Notes: generated by a model from the letters alone, not told the origin. 49,505 nt of DNA from Candidatus Daviesbacteria bacterium (GCA_016183225.1 JACPEZ010000004.1:1-49505), one strand, 5' to 3'. Positions 18,704-23,230 are shown, counted from the first letter of the stretch. Numbers and translations are program-made.

Positions 18704-19930
18704 TTATGTTCCTTCGTTCCAGCTGGAGAGGTAGTGTTTTTGTTCCTTGGTCAGTTGATCTATGGAAATTCCCATGGACTCAAGTTTAAGCCGGGCAATT
18801 TCAATATCTTGCTTTTCTGGTATGGTGTAGATATCATTTTTTAGCTTGCCTTTGTTTTTGACAAAAAATTCGGCTGCCAGGGCTTGATTGGCAAAAGACA
18901 AATCCATCACATCAGGCGGATGACCTTCTGCCGCCACCAGATTGATGAGCCTTCCTTCACCTAAAACAAAAACTTTTTTATTGTCCGGCATGACCAGTTC
19001 CTCCAGAAACTCCCGCACTTTGGTTATTTGTTTGGCTATTTTGACCAGATTTTCATAATCAAACTCCACATTAAAATGACCGGCATTGCACAAAATCACC
19101 CCGTTTTTTAGGAGTTTAAACAAATCCCTGCCCAAAACATTTTTATTGCCTGTGGCCGTGACTATAATATCTGCTTTTTGGCAAGCCACGGACAAAGATG
19201 TTACCTCAAATCCGTCCATCACTGCCTGCAGAGCCCGCACCGGATCAACCTCGGTAACTGTGACATGCGCTCCCATGCCTCTGGCCTTCTCGGAAATCCC
19301 CCTTCCGCACCAGCCATAGCCGCAAACCACAAAATTTTTACCGGCCAAAAGCACATTGGTAGCCCGGATAATCCCGTCTATGGTGGACTGGCCTGTGCCG
19401 TAGCGGTTATCAAACAAATGTTTGGTTTGAGAGTCGTTGACTGCCATCACCGGAATTTTTAAATCGCCCTTTTCTTTCATGGCTTTTAGCCTAATTACTC
19501 CGGTGGTGGTTTCCTCGGAGGAGCCGACAATCTCTTTAAGCTGTGATTTTCTCTCCGTGTGCAAAAGAGTAATCAGATCTGCCCCGTCATCCATGGTAAT
19601 TTGAGGATGAAAATCCAGGACTTTATTTAGATGTTTGTAATAAGTTTTCCTGTCTTCCCCTTTTTTGGCAAAAGTGGGGATGTCAAAATTTTTATTGAGC
19701 GACTCTGCCACTGCATCTTGGGTAGACAAAGGGTTTGATGCGCAAAGAGCCAGTTTAGCTCCTCCGCTTTGCAGGGTCAGCATTAAATTGGCTGTTTCGG
19801 CCGTGACATGCAAACAGGCCCCCAAAGTAATTCCTTTGAGAGGTTTATCCTTGGCAAAACGCTGCTTAATTTTCTCCAGCACTTTCATTTGGCTGCCGGC
19901 CCATTTGATTTTTAATTTTCCGTTATCCAT
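18704..19930 (-). CDS. ahcY: adenosylhomocysteinase (S-adenosyl-L-homocysteine hydrolase)
   Basis: KPLKGITLGACLHVTAETANLMLTL..., NDSQTKHLFDNRYGTGQS, CGYGWCGRG NAD-binding loop. The start is set at MDNGKLKIKWA (ATG 19930), which overlaps the upstream stop by 8 nt. Confidence 0.9.
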   Translation of the reverse strand: MDNGKLKIKWAGSQMKVLEKIKQRFAKDKPLKGITLGACLHVTAETANLMLTLQSGGAKLALCASNPLSTQDAVAESLNKNFDIPTFAKKGEDRKTYYKHLNKVLDFHPQITMDDGADLITLLHTERKSQLKEIVGSSEETTTGVIRLKAMKEKGDLKIPVMAVNDSQTKHLFDNRYGTGQSTIDGIIRATNVLLAGKNFVVCGYGWCGRGISEKARGMGAHVTVTEVDPVRALQAVMDGFEVTSLSVACQKADIIVTATGNKNVLGRDLFKLLKNGVILCNAGHFNVEFDYENLVKIAKQITKVREFLEELVMPDNKKVFVLGEGRLINLVAAEGHPPDVMDLSFANQALAAEFFVKNKGKLKNDIYTIPEKQDIEIARLKLESMGISIDQLTKEQKHYLSSWNEGT

Positions 19931-20825
19931 AATTTTCCTTGTATCTAACTTGAAACTCATCCAGGGTAAAGCTATGGGTAGTTGTACCATATTTTTCCAC
20001 GCTGTAGCAAGCGGCAACAGATCCCATTTGGCCGCATTCTTTTAAATCCCGGCCTTGCAAGTAGCCGGCCAGAAAACCGGCCCTGTAGGCATCTCCCGCC
20101 CCTGTTGGATCAAGCACTTTTTTCGGTCTGGCCGCTTGAATCTCGATATTTTGATCTTTAGTCTGGATCAGGGAACCTTTTTCTCCAAAAGTGGTAATAA
20201 GAATATCCACTTTGATTTCTTTAAGTCGTTTTTTGATTAGAGTTACTTCATAGTCATTACCGATTAGAATTTTGGCCCCTGTCATACCTTGGAGAAGTTG
20301 CCGGTCAGATAGCCTAGGTAGTTGCATGCCCGGATCAAACATATAGGGAATGTTTAAATTTTGGCTTTCCAGGGCAAAATTAATCATGGCCCGGGGATCA
20401 TTGGGTGATATAACTGCAAATTCAGAGGCCTCAATAGATAAATTTACATTTTCAGACATTGCCCCGGGATAAAAAGCAGTGATCTGATTGTCTGCTTGAT
20501 CGGTAACGATAAAAGCCTGGGAGGTAAGCTTATTTTTGACAATCTTAATATTTGATACTTTCACCCCGGCCTTTTGAAGAAAGTCAGAATATTCATTGAA
20601 ATCTTCACCGGCAGATCCCAAAATGGATACGGGCATTTGCAAAAGAGCCAGGTTATAGGCAATGTTGCCGGCTGTCCCGCCTTTTTGCTTTTTTAAAGTG
20701 TCAACGAGAAATGAAAGATTTAAAATGTGAGTTTTGGTTGGATCAATATGGTCGGCAAACTTTCCCGGAAAATCCATGATCACATCATATGCCAGCGACC
20801 CTGTTACCAAAACATATTTTTTCAC
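19923..20825 (-). CDS. PfkB-family carbohydrate/nucleoside kinase (adenosine kinase plausible from its link to ahcY)
   Basis: GGTAGNIAYNLALL and DPTGAGDAYRAGFLAG are PfkB signatures. Translationally coupled to ahcY. Confidence 0.8.
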   Translation of the reverse strand: MKKYVLVTGSLAYDVIMDFPGKFADHIDPTKTHILNLSFLVDTLKKQKGGTAGNIAYNLALLQMPVSILGSAGEDFNEYSDFLQKAGVKVSNIKIVKNKLTSQAFIVTDQADNQITAFYPGAMSENVNLSIEASEFAVISPNDPRAMINFALESQNLNIPYMFDPGMQLPRLSDRQLLQGMTGAKILIGNDYEVTLIKKRLKEIKVDILITTFGEKGSLIQTKDQNIEIQAARPKKVLDPTGAGDAYRAGFLAGYLQGRDLKECGQMGSVAACYSVEKYGTTTHSFTLDEFQVRYKENYG

Positions 20826-20865
20826 TACCTAATTTATATCAAAAAAAACTAATTTAGTACAGTAT

Positions 20866-20894
20866 TTGACAACCTCTATATCGTCTGTTAATGT
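20866..20894 (+). promoter_or_regulatory. sigma70-like promoter for the glmS leader (TTGACA-N17-TAATGT)
   Basis: TTGACA at 20866-20871, a 17-nt spacer and TAATGT at 20889-20894, about 35 nt upstream of the ribozyme-like element. Confidence 0.5.
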
Positions 20895-20928
20895 AAATCT
20901 GTTCTTAGAGAAGGAGTTTTTAAGAAAG

Positions 20929-21038
20929 AGCGTGTGGCCCGGCCTTTGGCAGGGATACGAGGAAGAGGGTAAATCGAAATTATCTGCGGAAACCCTCAGG
21001 TTGGTTGCAAACCTAAAGGTGATTTTGAAAAGAAATCA
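20929..21038 (+). ncRNA. glmS ribozyme-like element (glucosamine-6-phosphate-activated ribozyme)
   Basis: AGCG...GGCAGG..ACGAGGA-AGAGGGTAAATCGAAATTATCTGCGGAAACCCTC-AGGTTGGTTGCAAACCTAAAGG, then the hairpin TGATTT/AAATCA. It is collinear with the remembered Bacillus glmS core (ACGAGGA..GGAGGUUAUCGAA..CGGCGGAUGCCUCC..GCCGUAAGG) and lies upstream of glmS on the same strand. Confidence 0.6.
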
Positions 21039-21090
21039 TTAAGCAATCTCCTTAACTTCAAAGAACACCAAATAAAATTCTAATAATGAT

Positions 21091-21486
21091 TTATTTAGAG
21101 CCTGTAATGGAAGGAAGCGTATGATTAATACCACGCATTTTCTTATAGAGAGCTGTTCTGGCTCTATATTCAATGATTCTTGTTTTAGCCGTAAAATGTC
21201 CCCCTCTAGGAAAAATTCTTGCAACAAGTTTCATAACGAGTGCAGCCTGTTTTTTCTTCACAATAATATGGGGCAGTATAGCATTGAGAACTGGAGCACA
21301 ATTGGTGCCAGTGACTCGCCATTTATGACAAATGAGTTTTCTATTACCGGTAGGGATTACTTCATACCAAGCAGAATTACCAAAAGTTTTTTCAAGCAAT
21401 TCGATAGGTTGTCTATCAGCCATTCCGACCTCTATCAATGGAAGGAGGTGGATTAATATTTGTGGGATTTTTGGGTATATTGGCAA
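21091..21486 (-). pseudogene. LAGLIDADG-type homing endonuclease remnant (N-terminal catalytic motif missing)
   Basis: ELLEKTFGNSAWYEV...WRVTGTN..VLNAILPHIIVKKKQAALVMKLV...RGGHFTAKTRIIEYRARTALYKKMRGIN follows the C-terminal pattern of LAGLIDADG endonucleases. No LAGLIDADG helix is present, and the ORF runs into the glmS start. Confidence 0.5.
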
Positions 21487-23230
21487 GCAAAATGCCTCGG
21501 AGGTTGTCTTGGCCGGGTTAAAAAGGCTGGAATATCGGGGGTATGATTCTTGGGGAATTGCGATTTTGGCAGATCAAATTAAGATTAATAAAAAAGTAGG
21601 CGCAATTGGTGATTTAAACCAAGCTTTAAATCTTCCTAAATCAAGCATAGGAGTTGGCCATACCAGATGGGCCACGCATGGAGGAGTTACGGATATCAAT
21701 GCCCATCCTCATTTTTCCACTGATAAAAGTTTTTGTCTGGCCCAAAACGGCATAGTGGAAAATTACCAGAAGTTAAAAGATGATCTTTTGAAAAAAGGCT
21801 ATAAATTTCAGACAGAAACAGATACTGAAGTGATTGTGAGATTAATTGAAGAAAAACTAAAAAAAACCAGGGATTTAAAGGAAGCGGTAAGACAGGCCTT
21901 TTTAGAGCTCTCCGGCAGGAACACTGTGATAATTTTAACTAAGTACGGCCGGATTATTGCTGCCAGAAACGGTTCTCCCCTGGTAGTGGGTGTTAACAAC
22001 AAAGAAATCTTTTTTTCATCCGATACCCTGTCTTTCGCTCCGTTTGCAGATAAAATTGTGGTGATAGATAATGGCCAGATGGTTTATTATAACGGTAAAC
22101 TCAATGTTATAGACATTAAATCCGGCAAGAGCCTCCCGTACCGCCTTGAAAAGATTGATTTTCACTCCAGCAAAGTTGATAAAGAAGGTTATGACCATTT
22201 TATGCTTAAAGAAATTCATGAAAGCCCTTATGTAATAAATCAGATTGTTAACCGCGCAGAATCTCAATTTGAAAACTTTATTAAAGCTGTCAAACAAGCC
22301 AAAAATGTTTACACCATTGGTTCGGGCACTGCCGGCGTGGCTGCGTCCCAAATTGCTTTTTATCTTCGGGTCTTTGCCAAAATTAAAGCCCAAAGCGTAA
22401 TCGGAGCCGATATTTTTGAGTATTATGATTTATTAAGCAAAGACGATTTGATTATTGCTCCTTCGCAATCCGGAGAAACCGCCGATGTTTTGGAGGTTCT
22501 GGAAATTGCCAAAAAAAGAAAAGTGAAAATTGCTTCTTTAGTCAACATGCCGGGTTCTACCATGACCAGAATGTCTGACTTTCGTTTTATGAGCTTTGCA
22601 GGGCCGGAAATTTGCGTCATGTCCACCAAGGTATTTACTTCCCAGATTGCCTGGGGATATTTGTTAGGGAAAGTGATAAGTGGCAAGGGAAAAGTGGGAA
22701 GGGAAAATCTAAAGATTCTGTCTCAAGAAATGGAAAGATATTTGGACGCGCAAAGCAATCACGAACTTATTAAAAAGCTTGCCAAAAGACTAGGTAAATC
22801 CAAAGATATTTTTTTACTCGGAAAATATCAAAATTTTAATATTATAAAAGAGGGCATGATTAAAATTATCGAGGGCTCGTATATTCACGCTCACGGTATT
22901 CCGGCAGGAGATTTGAAGCATTATGCCATTACTTTAATGGAAAAAGGAGTGCCGGTGGTTGTGGTTGTATCGGAAGATGTGGCAAAAGGTGATGTATTAA
23001 ATGCGGTTAATCAGGTAAAAGCAAGAGGCGCGACTGTAATTGGTATATCCTCTACTTCTCACCCTAGCTTTGATCATTATATTCCTGTTCCCAATACAGG
23101 GGAAACTCAAGCAATTATGAACATTATCCCTTTGCAGCTTTTGGCTTATTACATGGCTGTTGAGCTGGGTCATAATGTGGACAAGCCCCGCAACATTGCC
23201 AAAAGCGTCACTGTGAAGTATTATAATTAG
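21458..23230 (+). CDS. glmS: glutamine--fructose-6-phosphate aminotransferase (isomerizing)
   Basis: CGIFGYIG...RLEYRGYDSWG Ntn-amidotransferase N-terminus, two SIS domains, C-terminal DKPRNIAKSVTV. The start is set at ATT 21458, directly before Cys, with GGAGG 9 nt upstream. The ORF-track ATG at 21332 would add 43 unrelated residues. Confidence 0.9.
   Translation: MCGIFGYIGKQNASEVVLAGLKRLEYRGYDSWGIAILADQIKINKKVGAIGDLNQALNLPKSSIGVGHTRWATHGGVTDINAHPHFSTDKSFCLAQNGIVENYQKLKDDLLKKGYKFQTETDTEVIVRLIEEKLKKTRDLKEAVRQAFLELSGRNTVIILTKYGRIIAARNGSPLVVGVNNKEIFFSSDTLSFAPFADKIVVIDNGQMVYYNGKLNVIDIKSGKSLPYRLEKIDFHSSKVDKEGYDHFMLKEIHESPYVINQIVNRAESQFENFIKAVKQAKNVYTIGSGTAGVAASQIAFYLRVFAKIKAQSVIGADIFEYYDLLSKDDLIIAPSQSGETADVLEVLEIAKKRKVKIASLVNMPGSTMTRMSDFRFMSFAGPEICVMSTKVFTSQIAWGYLLGKVISGKGKVGRENLKILSQEMERYLDAQSNHELIKKLAKRLGKSKDIFLLGKYQNFNIIKEGMIKIIEGSYIHAHGIPAGDLKHYAITLMEKGVPVVVVVSEDVAKGDVLNAVNQVKARGATVIGISSTSHPSFDHYIPVPNTGETQAIMNIIPLQLLAYYMAVELGHNVDKPRNIAKSVTVKYYN

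Follow-up and report, generated by a model that had tools for sequence, protein, structure and literature searches.

A homing endonuclease remnant between a glmS ribozyme and the start codon of glmS in a bacterium of the candidate phyla radiation

The glmS ribozyme (the glucosamine-6-phosphate, or GlcN6P, riboswitch; RF00234), as known from Bacillus subtilis and Thermoanaerobacter tengcongensis, lies in the 5′ untranslated region (UTR) of glmS on the same strand, and in Bacillus the 5′-OH product of its cleavage is degraded by RNase J. The glmS gene is also the address of the transposon Tn7, which reads the 3′ end of glmS through TnsD and inserts at attTn7 downstream of the gene. Among homing endonucleases, the LAGLIDADG enzymes I-CreI, I-MsoI and I-CvuI sit in group I introns of organellar rRNA genes, and in phage Aeh1 mobE splits nrdA. 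The free-standing homing endonucleases of T-even phages, with their intronless homing and the Seg and Mob proteins, have been reviewed (PMC2988022). On one published view, free-standing genes of this kind occur only at intergenic sites, since a copy with neither intron nor intein around it would disrupt the host gene (PMC13619312). We have analyzed a 49,505-nucleotide stretch of DNA from a Candidatus Daviesbacteria bacterium (hereafter the window), a member of the candidate phyla radiation (CPR), in which a glmS ribozyme is separated from glmS by the remnant of a LAGLIDADG homing endonuclease gene on the opposite strand.

Our account of this locus, to which we give a probability of about 80%, is that a promoter and a genuine ribozyme precede glmS, that a homing cassette was inserted at the glmS start codon, that its endonuclease gene was then disabled by a deletion, and that ribozyme control would continue across the insert. 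The individual elements are familiar: an RF00234 ribozyme, a LAGLIDADG enzyme of the I-CreI type and homing by a free-standing gene, as in T-even phages (PMC2988022). What is new is their combination, namely insertion at a start codon with replacement of the Shine-Dalgarno (SD) sequence and start, antisense residence between a ribozyme and its gene and, probably, carriage of the ribozyme. The family shows a third solution for an element that has neither intron nor intergenic site: insertion takes place at the start codon, and the element itself supplies another ribosome-binding site and another start. In an incomplete library, a literature search turned up no paper that links glmS to LAGLIDADG homing at the start of the gene, and none that mentions "glmS ribozyme" together with "candidate phyla radiation".

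The host, a groundwater bacterium, has a genome of about 0.8-0.9 Mb, and the glmS of the window is the sole copy found in the 0.78 Mb assembly. The 631 nt from the pfkB start to the glmS start contain the promoter, the ribozyme and the antisense cassette. The features are as follows.

20866-20894, + strand: proposed promoter of the ribozyme-glmS transcript (-35 TTGACA 20866-20871, 17-nt spacer, TG 20886-20887, -10 TAATGT 20889-20894)
20918-21061, + strand: glmS ribozyme RF00234, with short P1 loop and no P4.1; predicted cleavage A20929/G20930
21069-21088, + strand: relic native leader ending in a relic start ATG (21086-21088), from comparison of the junctions
21091-21441, - strand: 5′-truncated LAGLIDADG homing endonuclease gene (stop codon 21091-21093), equivalent to residues 33-148 of the intact protein
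21433-21441, no strand: deletion junction, ~135 nt lost between TCA(A)TGG microhomologies, from alignment with loci L017, L018 and L019
21442-21457, + strand: cassette-borne ribosome-binding region of glmS, GGAGG (21444-21448) and then TGGATTAAT
21458-23230, + strand: glmS (glutamine-fructose-6-phosphate amidotransferase), start ATT 21458-21460, with GATase and two SIS domains
20826-20862, no strand: apparent residue of the short pfkB-glmS spacer of the genus, to the left of the putatively imported block
19923-20825, - strand: PfkB-family kinase gene, by domain match, divergent and upstream of glmS

The ribozyme and the antisense endonuclease gene

Scanning the whole window against Rfam with cmscan gave a match to RF00234 of 47.7 bits, above the gathering score of 37 and extending over model positions 1-167. 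The E-value was 4e-8, and 7e-10 in a permissive search of the 801-nt stretch 20750-21550. This was the one non-tRNA Rfam family in the window, and the permissive search returned nothing else of note. The original prediction had recognized a glmS ribozyme-like leader by a series of motifs, all of which are present, and the covariance model gives a significant score for 20918-21061.

The alignment contains the A|GCG cleavage context, with self-cleavage predicted between A20929 and G20930, together with the ACGAGGA core and helices P2, P3 and P4. The RNA thus resembles known glmS ribozymes in its full-length match above the curated cut-off, in its cleavage context, in its sense-strand location in the glmS 5′ UTR and in the presence of RNase J in the genome. 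It differs from them in its short P1 loop and missing P4.1, in having a CPR host, to whose genus it is probably an acquisition rather than native, and in its distance from the gene. This is an atypical 396 nt from the end of the Rfam match to the start codon (about 420 nt from the ribozyme end first assumed), compared with 25-129 nt in eight related loci that carry the ribozyme in an uninterrupted leader without an endonuclease. The score of the window ribozyme is comparable to those of these endonuclease-free relatives (45-54 bits). Of the 28 consensus pairs, 11 show compensatory double changes across eight related loci, most of them in P2 and P4; this covariation is supportive only, because the structure was predicted on the same alignment. 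The occurrence of glmS ribozymes in a CPR-like lineage, raised as a point of interest by the original prediction, is borne out by a survey of 61 related genomes, in which RF00234 was found in seven of 36 genomes of the same CPR family and in one of 24 other families of the class.

The TTGACA-N17-TAATGT promoter noted earlier is found at 20866-20894. Its -35 TTGACA and a -10 of the form TGnTAAnnT recur with the same spacing at four other ribozyme-bearing loci (G013, G030, G034 and L019). A simple promoter scan did not list it, because TAATGT matches the -10 consensus at only three of six positions, and this proposed promoter, like that proposed below for the endonuclease, rests on conservation and on a reading of the sequence. 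A 956-nt contig of sequencing run X9 has 51 other letters in place of 17 nt of the P1 loop (window 20963-20981), and the length of this loop is therefore polymorphic between close relatives; long P1 inserts are also found in G013 and G031.

The antisense open reading frame (ORF) at 21091-21486 comprises 131 amino acids, or 110 in the gene call (21091-21423), and corresponds to the C-terminal ~78% of a single-motif LAGLIDADG homing endonuclease similar to I-CreI and I-MsoI. Searching 5.8 billion proteins gave eight homologues of 112-158 amino acids that are 47-75% identical (E = 1e-23 to 4e-53). Seven of the eight are 145-158 amino acids long, with the N-terminus ...YAYLAGLIDGEGC... (also given as ...YAYLAGLIDGEGCISIRRCKQGKFIYYKPMIEVGM...), and these intact relatives have a LAGLIDGEG or LAGIIDGEG motif with an acidic residue at the catalytic position. 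Residues 16-131 of the ORF align with residues 33-148 of an intact 148-amino acid relative, starting at ...IEVGM, and an intact 148-amino acid protein in the window copy's own 90% cluster is ~91% identical to the remnant. The eighth homologue, P0008 (112 amino acids), begins at MIEVGM, the point at which the window copy starts aligning, as does P0015 (107 amino acids). These short forms may be independent 5′ truncations, products of internal start use or gene-calling artefacts.

The homologues, profile searches and a fold comparison settle the LAGLIDADG identity that had been proposed for this remnant. Two intact relatives score 25.1 and 24.3 bits against Pfam LAGLIDADG_1 (cut-off 23.1), and five others 15.8-22.7 bits. 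Against the PDB, the family profile matched I-MsoI (2e-9) and I-CvuI (5e-7), the range of matches extending down to 6e-3 and including I-CreI. An AlphaFold model of the intact relative P0003, of moderate confidence (predicted local distance difference test, pLDDT, 67.8) and with the N-terminal helix not modelled, gave I-CvuI, I-MsoI and I-CreI as its best Foldseek matches (E = 2e-6; template modelling score, TM, about 0.6). In this model the protein is predicted to have the alpha-beta-beta-alpha-beta-beta-alpha fold of the solved members. In PHROG the window ORF itself matched phrog_5046 (E = 8e-7), and there was a faint match to I-MsoI. The label of phrog_5046, "HNH endonuclease", was taken to be wrong, since LAGLIDADG enzymes are the only ones that the profile and the fold of the family match. 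When the profile was compared with 1.84 billion cluster representatives, 17,283 LAGLIDADG proteins were found, with six clusters at E ≤1e-30; the clade of the window endonuclease is small. The enzyme of the cassette would presumably be homodimeric.

The intact relatives are like I-CreI, I-MsoI and I-CvuI in having 145-158 amino acids and one LAGLIDGEG motif, and in having these enzymes as their best profile and fold matches. In contrast to those intron-borne enzymes, the gene here is free-standing and antisense to its host gene in a bacterial chromosome, and the window copy lacks the motif. It lies outside the glmS reading frame and in neither an intron nor an intein, and no group I or group II intron model matched 20750-21550 even at E up to 1. 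The intact members are candidates for compact meganucleases directed at a bacterial gene that is conserved universally. A second and distant LAGLIDADG ORF (a 173-amino acid frame, E = 4.5e-6 to the family profile) is present on G000 contig C51:4776-5096 (locus L007). It sits inside an interrupted 23S rRNA gene, the large subunit (LSU) rRNA model matching in three pieces around it, an arrangement that is typical of CPR rRNA insertions.

Insertion at the glmS start and loss of the endonuclease

The obligatory N-terminal cysteine codon of GlmS is at 21461. The start must be the codon just before it, and is therefore ATT 21458-21460, with GGAGG 9 nt upstream. The upstream end of the nominal antisense ORF overlaps this start, which is the collision between the two genes that had been pointed out previously. 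A metagenome scan provided three loci (L017, L018 and L019) with intact endonuclease genes of 147-149 amino acids that are divergent from glmS, with ~55 nt between the two starts. An RF00234 ribozyme lies just beyond the endonuclease stop codon in L018 (55.8 bits) and L019 (41.9 bits).

Counts of the insertion site cover these three loci and the window, and leave aside the homologues P0002, P0004, P0005 and P0007-P0009 and the more distant P0010-P0017. All four carriers begin glmS with ATT-TGY, compared with ATG-TGY in 12 of 12 endonuclease-free loci (the eight ribozyme-bearing relatives together with G001, G002, G003 and G008). The right junction consists in each carrier of a purine-rich SD, then TTAAT, then ATT, and a GGAGG-like SD is absent from the five closest endonuclease-free ribozyme leaders. 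At the left junction, too, all four have an ATG, which precedes the stop codon of the endonuclease gene by 2-6 nt. In the ribozyme-bearing carriers, three in number, this relic ATG is 12-20 nt after the ribozyme tail CAAAGAA, and in endonuclease-free leaders the real ATG is 11-23 nt after the tail. The left-hand leaders vary among loci in the manner of native leaders, and the right-hand end is near constant. The relic ATG on the left and the SD and ATT on the right lead to the conclusion that insertion took place immediately after the native ATG and that the cassette brought its own SD and start. The earlier proposal that a homing endonuclease invaded the glmS leader and then decayed is thus supported, with the insertion point refined to the start codon itself. 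In L018, similarity to the other carriers stops within ~9 codons of the ATT, and the right border of the cassette is therefore the start codon. The part of the host that is replaced is minimal, comprising the SD and start codon, and the element faces away from glmS.

The enzyme would recognize highly conserved DNA around the glmS start, comprising the end of the leader and the codons for M-C-G-I-F-G-Y, and the cassette would insert directly behind the native ATG, which in the window would survive as the relic at 21086-21088. Since insertion severs the gene from its own initiation signals, the right end of the cassette would supply a strong SD and an ATT start. This would explain a puzzling ATT start on the gene of an essential N-terminal nucleophile (Ntn) amidotransferase. 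The opposite strand of the same ~55-nt control region would hold the endonuclease promoter: in L018 and L019 it reads TTGACT, 18 nt, TGgTAATTT, 6 nt and ATG, a placement that suggests a leaderless endonuclease mRNA. Simple promoter scans do not list this proposed promoter, the -10 of which matches the consensus at three of six positions.

As with Tn7, the extremely conserved glmS coding sequence would serve as the address and insertion occurs just outside the protein-coding part; Tn7 is a transposon, whereas here a homing endonuclease presumably reads the 5′ end of glmS. The likeness to free-standing homing in T-even phages (PMC2988022) is that there is no intron or intein, that the gene lies beside or inside a conserved host gene, that it passes into alleles that lack it, apparently taking flanking sequence along by co-conversion, and that the function of the host gene is preserved. 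The phage enzymes, however, belong to the GIY-YIG and HNH families, and the exact insertion at a start codon with replacement of the initiation signals is found here.

The window is collinear with the intact cassettes from the endonuclease stop codon to ...CTCTATCA, and then jumps to ATGGAAGGAGG of the glmS SD region. In the alignment with L017, L018 and L019, ~135 nt are missing between TCATGG and TCAATGG. The deletion has taken the endonuclease -10 element, the start codon and ~32 codons, including the LAGLIDADG helix and the first strands. Since the alignment starts at residue 33 of the intact protein, the window copy is without the LAGLIDADG helix and its acidic catalytic residue, and because this catalytic and dimerizing helix is lost the remnant is dead as an endonuclease. 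On the minus strand the junction retains a -35-like TTGATA of the endonuclease promoter (21438-21433), and the SD and ATT of glmS were spared. The remnant contains no internal stops, with a His at an otherwise Tyr or Phe position before a conserved VKKKQ. Decay in the window lineage is the result of one recent deletion between the microhomologies rather than of slow erosion. An intact copy, ~91% identical in protein, is found in the same 90% cluster, and contigs of other groundwater runs, which follow the window as far as 21441, continue differently beyond that point.

On the glmS strand, the relic ATG opens a 12-codon upstream ORF without an SD (21086-21124) that enters the endonuclease remnant. 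A second + strand ORF (21121-21456) had no family match in Pfam, NCBIfam and PHROG scans and was taken as a shadow of the antisense gene. A search of species-genome contigs for DNA encoding N-I-C-G-I-F-G-Y with ATT gave 14 matches, all of them by chance, in unrelated frames and with no GlmS or endonuclease nearby.

Mobility, empty sites and the origin of the ribozyme

The endonuclease is mobile, and the glmS genes between which it has moved are far apart. In L018 and L019 the endonucleases share 84% identity and the GlmS proteins 43%; the GlmS proteins of the four carriers diverge, one locus with an intact endonuclease gene having a GlmS that is only ~40% identical. At E = 1e-10, none of 95 other genomes of the family yielded the endonuclease, and scans with the family alignment gave no relative in 185,579 species genomes (as a pattern scan) or in viral contigs.

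In G001 and G002, the two other species of the genus (GlmS 84% identical in one and 80% in the other), the pfkB-glmS synteny is present with 16-48 nt between the genes, and glmS has an ATG start with neither ribozyme nor endonuclease. In both, TATAAT is found 8-9 nt before the ATG with no SD (L023 of G001, 1482-1500; L021 of G002, upstream of 3270), and glmS there looks leaderless or nearly so. In run X6, which comes from the study of the probable source samples, a 314-nt Logan contig links 20825 to 21457 by 40 nt that are the same as the spacer of G002, and is an empty site in the same aquifer. There is thus a presence/absence polymorphism at one site, which is empty in G001, G002 and the X6 contig and filled in the window and in contigs of runs X7 and X9. 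The 956-nt X9 contig and the 293-nt X7 contig, from another study, match the pfkB-ribozyme-endonuclease arrangement of the window as far as 21441, beyond which they extend by 232 and 204 nt. The X9 contig has the length that is recorded for the contig coding for the intact 148-amino acid protein of the window copy's 90% cluster. Only a small fraction of the words sampled from the stretch is present in runs X7 and X8, from which we draw no conclusion on habitat.

pfkB adjoins glmS only in the genus of the window, and the promoter and ribozyme of the window are 91% identical to those of G013. The left junction of this block is at about 20862/63, with 20826-20862 aligning to the 40-nt spacer of the empty site of G002 (16 of 18 in the core). 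The window and G002 group as sisters, with G001 outside, in a tree of glmS codons 201-400 (100/100) and only there. The tree of codons 2-150 gave no resolution, and there the nearest sequence to the window is L017. Identity between the window and G002 is 0.80 for codons 1-30, 0.69 for codons 31-75 and 0.88 for codons 201-400, and the pattern is the reverse for G002 and G001. Maximum chi-square placed breakpoints at codons 93-139 (244 with L019, and 377 in the G001-L017 comparison), with a permutation p of 0.001. Codons ~1 to 90/140 of glmS (to about 21740-21875) have the appearance of a tract acquired from a foreign allele by co-conversion.

In this genus the ribozyme is probably foreign, and seems to have arrived together with the endonuclease. 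We lean, with rather better than even odds, to the view that a single block was imported in the course of homing or repair, comprising the promoter, the ribozyme, the endonuclease and some 90-140 codons at the 5′ end of glmS. More tentatively, and at somewhat less than even odds, a homing endonuclease targeting a start codon could have served as the vehicle of a regulatory RNA. Repair would have copied the whole left flank of the donor, carrying promoter and ribozyme, into a ribozyme-free congener, in a genus where glmS otherwise has a leader of 16-48 nt; the ATT would block re-cutting of the occupied site and reset glmS translation with a strong SD. Hitch-hiking in a homing co-conversion tract would then be a candidate mechanism for the horizontal spread of riboswitches.

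Several observations weigh against our overall account of the locus. The window ORF itself has no Pfam or NCBIfam match, and that part of the proposed family check failed where the homologues, the profile and the fold of an intact relative succeeded. The activities of the ribozyme and of the endonuclease family are predicted only. The TTAAT-ATT of the right junction may be a native leader with a G-to-T change. In L017 a tRNA gene occupies the position of the ribozyme, and since the cassette is present there without a ribozyme, the element does not require one. At the left junction the spacer alignment is just ~59% alike, in AT-rich sequence. Because the approximately unbiased (AU) test does not reject a grouping of the window with G002 for glmS codons 2-150 (p = 0.27), the mosaic rests on maximum chi-square, which can be inflated by rate variation along the gene. 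Lastly, an internal promoter that bypasses the ribozyme is compatible with the sequence alone.

Alternatively, the ribozyme may have been ancestral at this locus in the genus, with the endonuclease invading in place, G001 and G002 each losing the ribozyme by deletion, and no import of a block. Vertical presence with frequent loss is conceivable given RF00234 in seven of the 36 family genomes sampled, and the AU result accords with it. We nevertheless consider this unlikely. Since G002 is the sister of the window with G001 outside, it needs two losses compared with one gain; moreover, the pfkB-glmS synteny is confined to this genus, a residue of the short spacer of the genus seems to survive to the left of the promoter, and the 5′ part of glmS appears mosaic.

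Ribozyme control and the remaining alternatives

In the account that we favor, transcription of glmS would still begin at the ribozyme promoter and read through the antisense remnant, and self-cleavage at A20929|G20930 would yield a 5′-OH RNA for RNase J, which is encoded in the genome (554.7 bits). Because 5′-to-3′ decay after cleavage does not depend on distance, control across the insert is expected to persist, and we regard it as plausible. There is no terminator-like site between the ribozyme and the glmS start, and promoter-like matches in this interval are at chance level (four found, 3.0 expected in shuffled sequence). The locus offers a natural opportunity to learn whether a glmS ribozyme can act on a start codon ~530 nt downstream of it, with an antisense gene in between.

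The insert could instead have uncoupled glmS from the ribozyme, with glmS transcribed from a promoter inside the cassette and the ribozyme left as a dead-end leader. Carriers can live without the ribozyme: in L017 an intact glmS accompanies the cassette and nothing but a tRNA gene lies upstream, so that carrier loci can express glmS with no ribozyme. In addition, weak promoter-like matches are found on the + strand of the window at 21257-21284 and 21453-21481. Such matches are, however, no commoner than in shuffled sequence, and a ribozyme that has kept its helices and scores like those of endonuclease-free relatives, with no terminator-like site before glmS, does not have the look of a dead end. 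We find uncoupling doubtful, and a little more so than an ancestral ribozyme.

It is very improbable that the LAGLIDADG-like gene has been domesticated as a DNA- or RNA-binding partner of glmS, acting as a regulator or in the manner of a maturase, with the 110-amino acid form as a functional short version. The remnant does keep an open frame of 110-131 codons without stops, the EVGM sequence is invariant and gives an internal start (GAGG-N5-ATG), and the 112- and 107-amino acid entries also begin there; these entries, however, may be artefacts of gene calling or of contig ends. The gene is absent from the 95 other family genomes, including both congeners, the endonuclease and GlmS phylogenies disagree strongly, and intact copies keep the motif with its catalytic acidic residue. 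The window copy, by contrast, has lost the helix of the dimer interface and active site and has His in place of a conserved Tyr.

An assembly chimera or a chance open frame can be dismissed. The source is a metagenome-assembled draft of 56 contigs that is 85% complete, but 99-100% of the words sampled from the stretch are present in six runs from two studies, among which the source sample may be included. In X6, the one of these runs whose contigs were compared with the stretch, 20643-21900 is covered with no difference at any position. The parts occur in the same order on contigs of a third study, and the homologues match at E = 1e-23 to 1e-53.

The same two tRNA genes, one of them identical in sequence and scoring 73.6 bits in both, stand before the glmS region in L017 (4420-4586) and L018 (1760-1921). 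These two loci are contigs of one metagenome, and their GlmS proteins are just 39% identical. In G008, tRNA genes are also found upstream of glmS.

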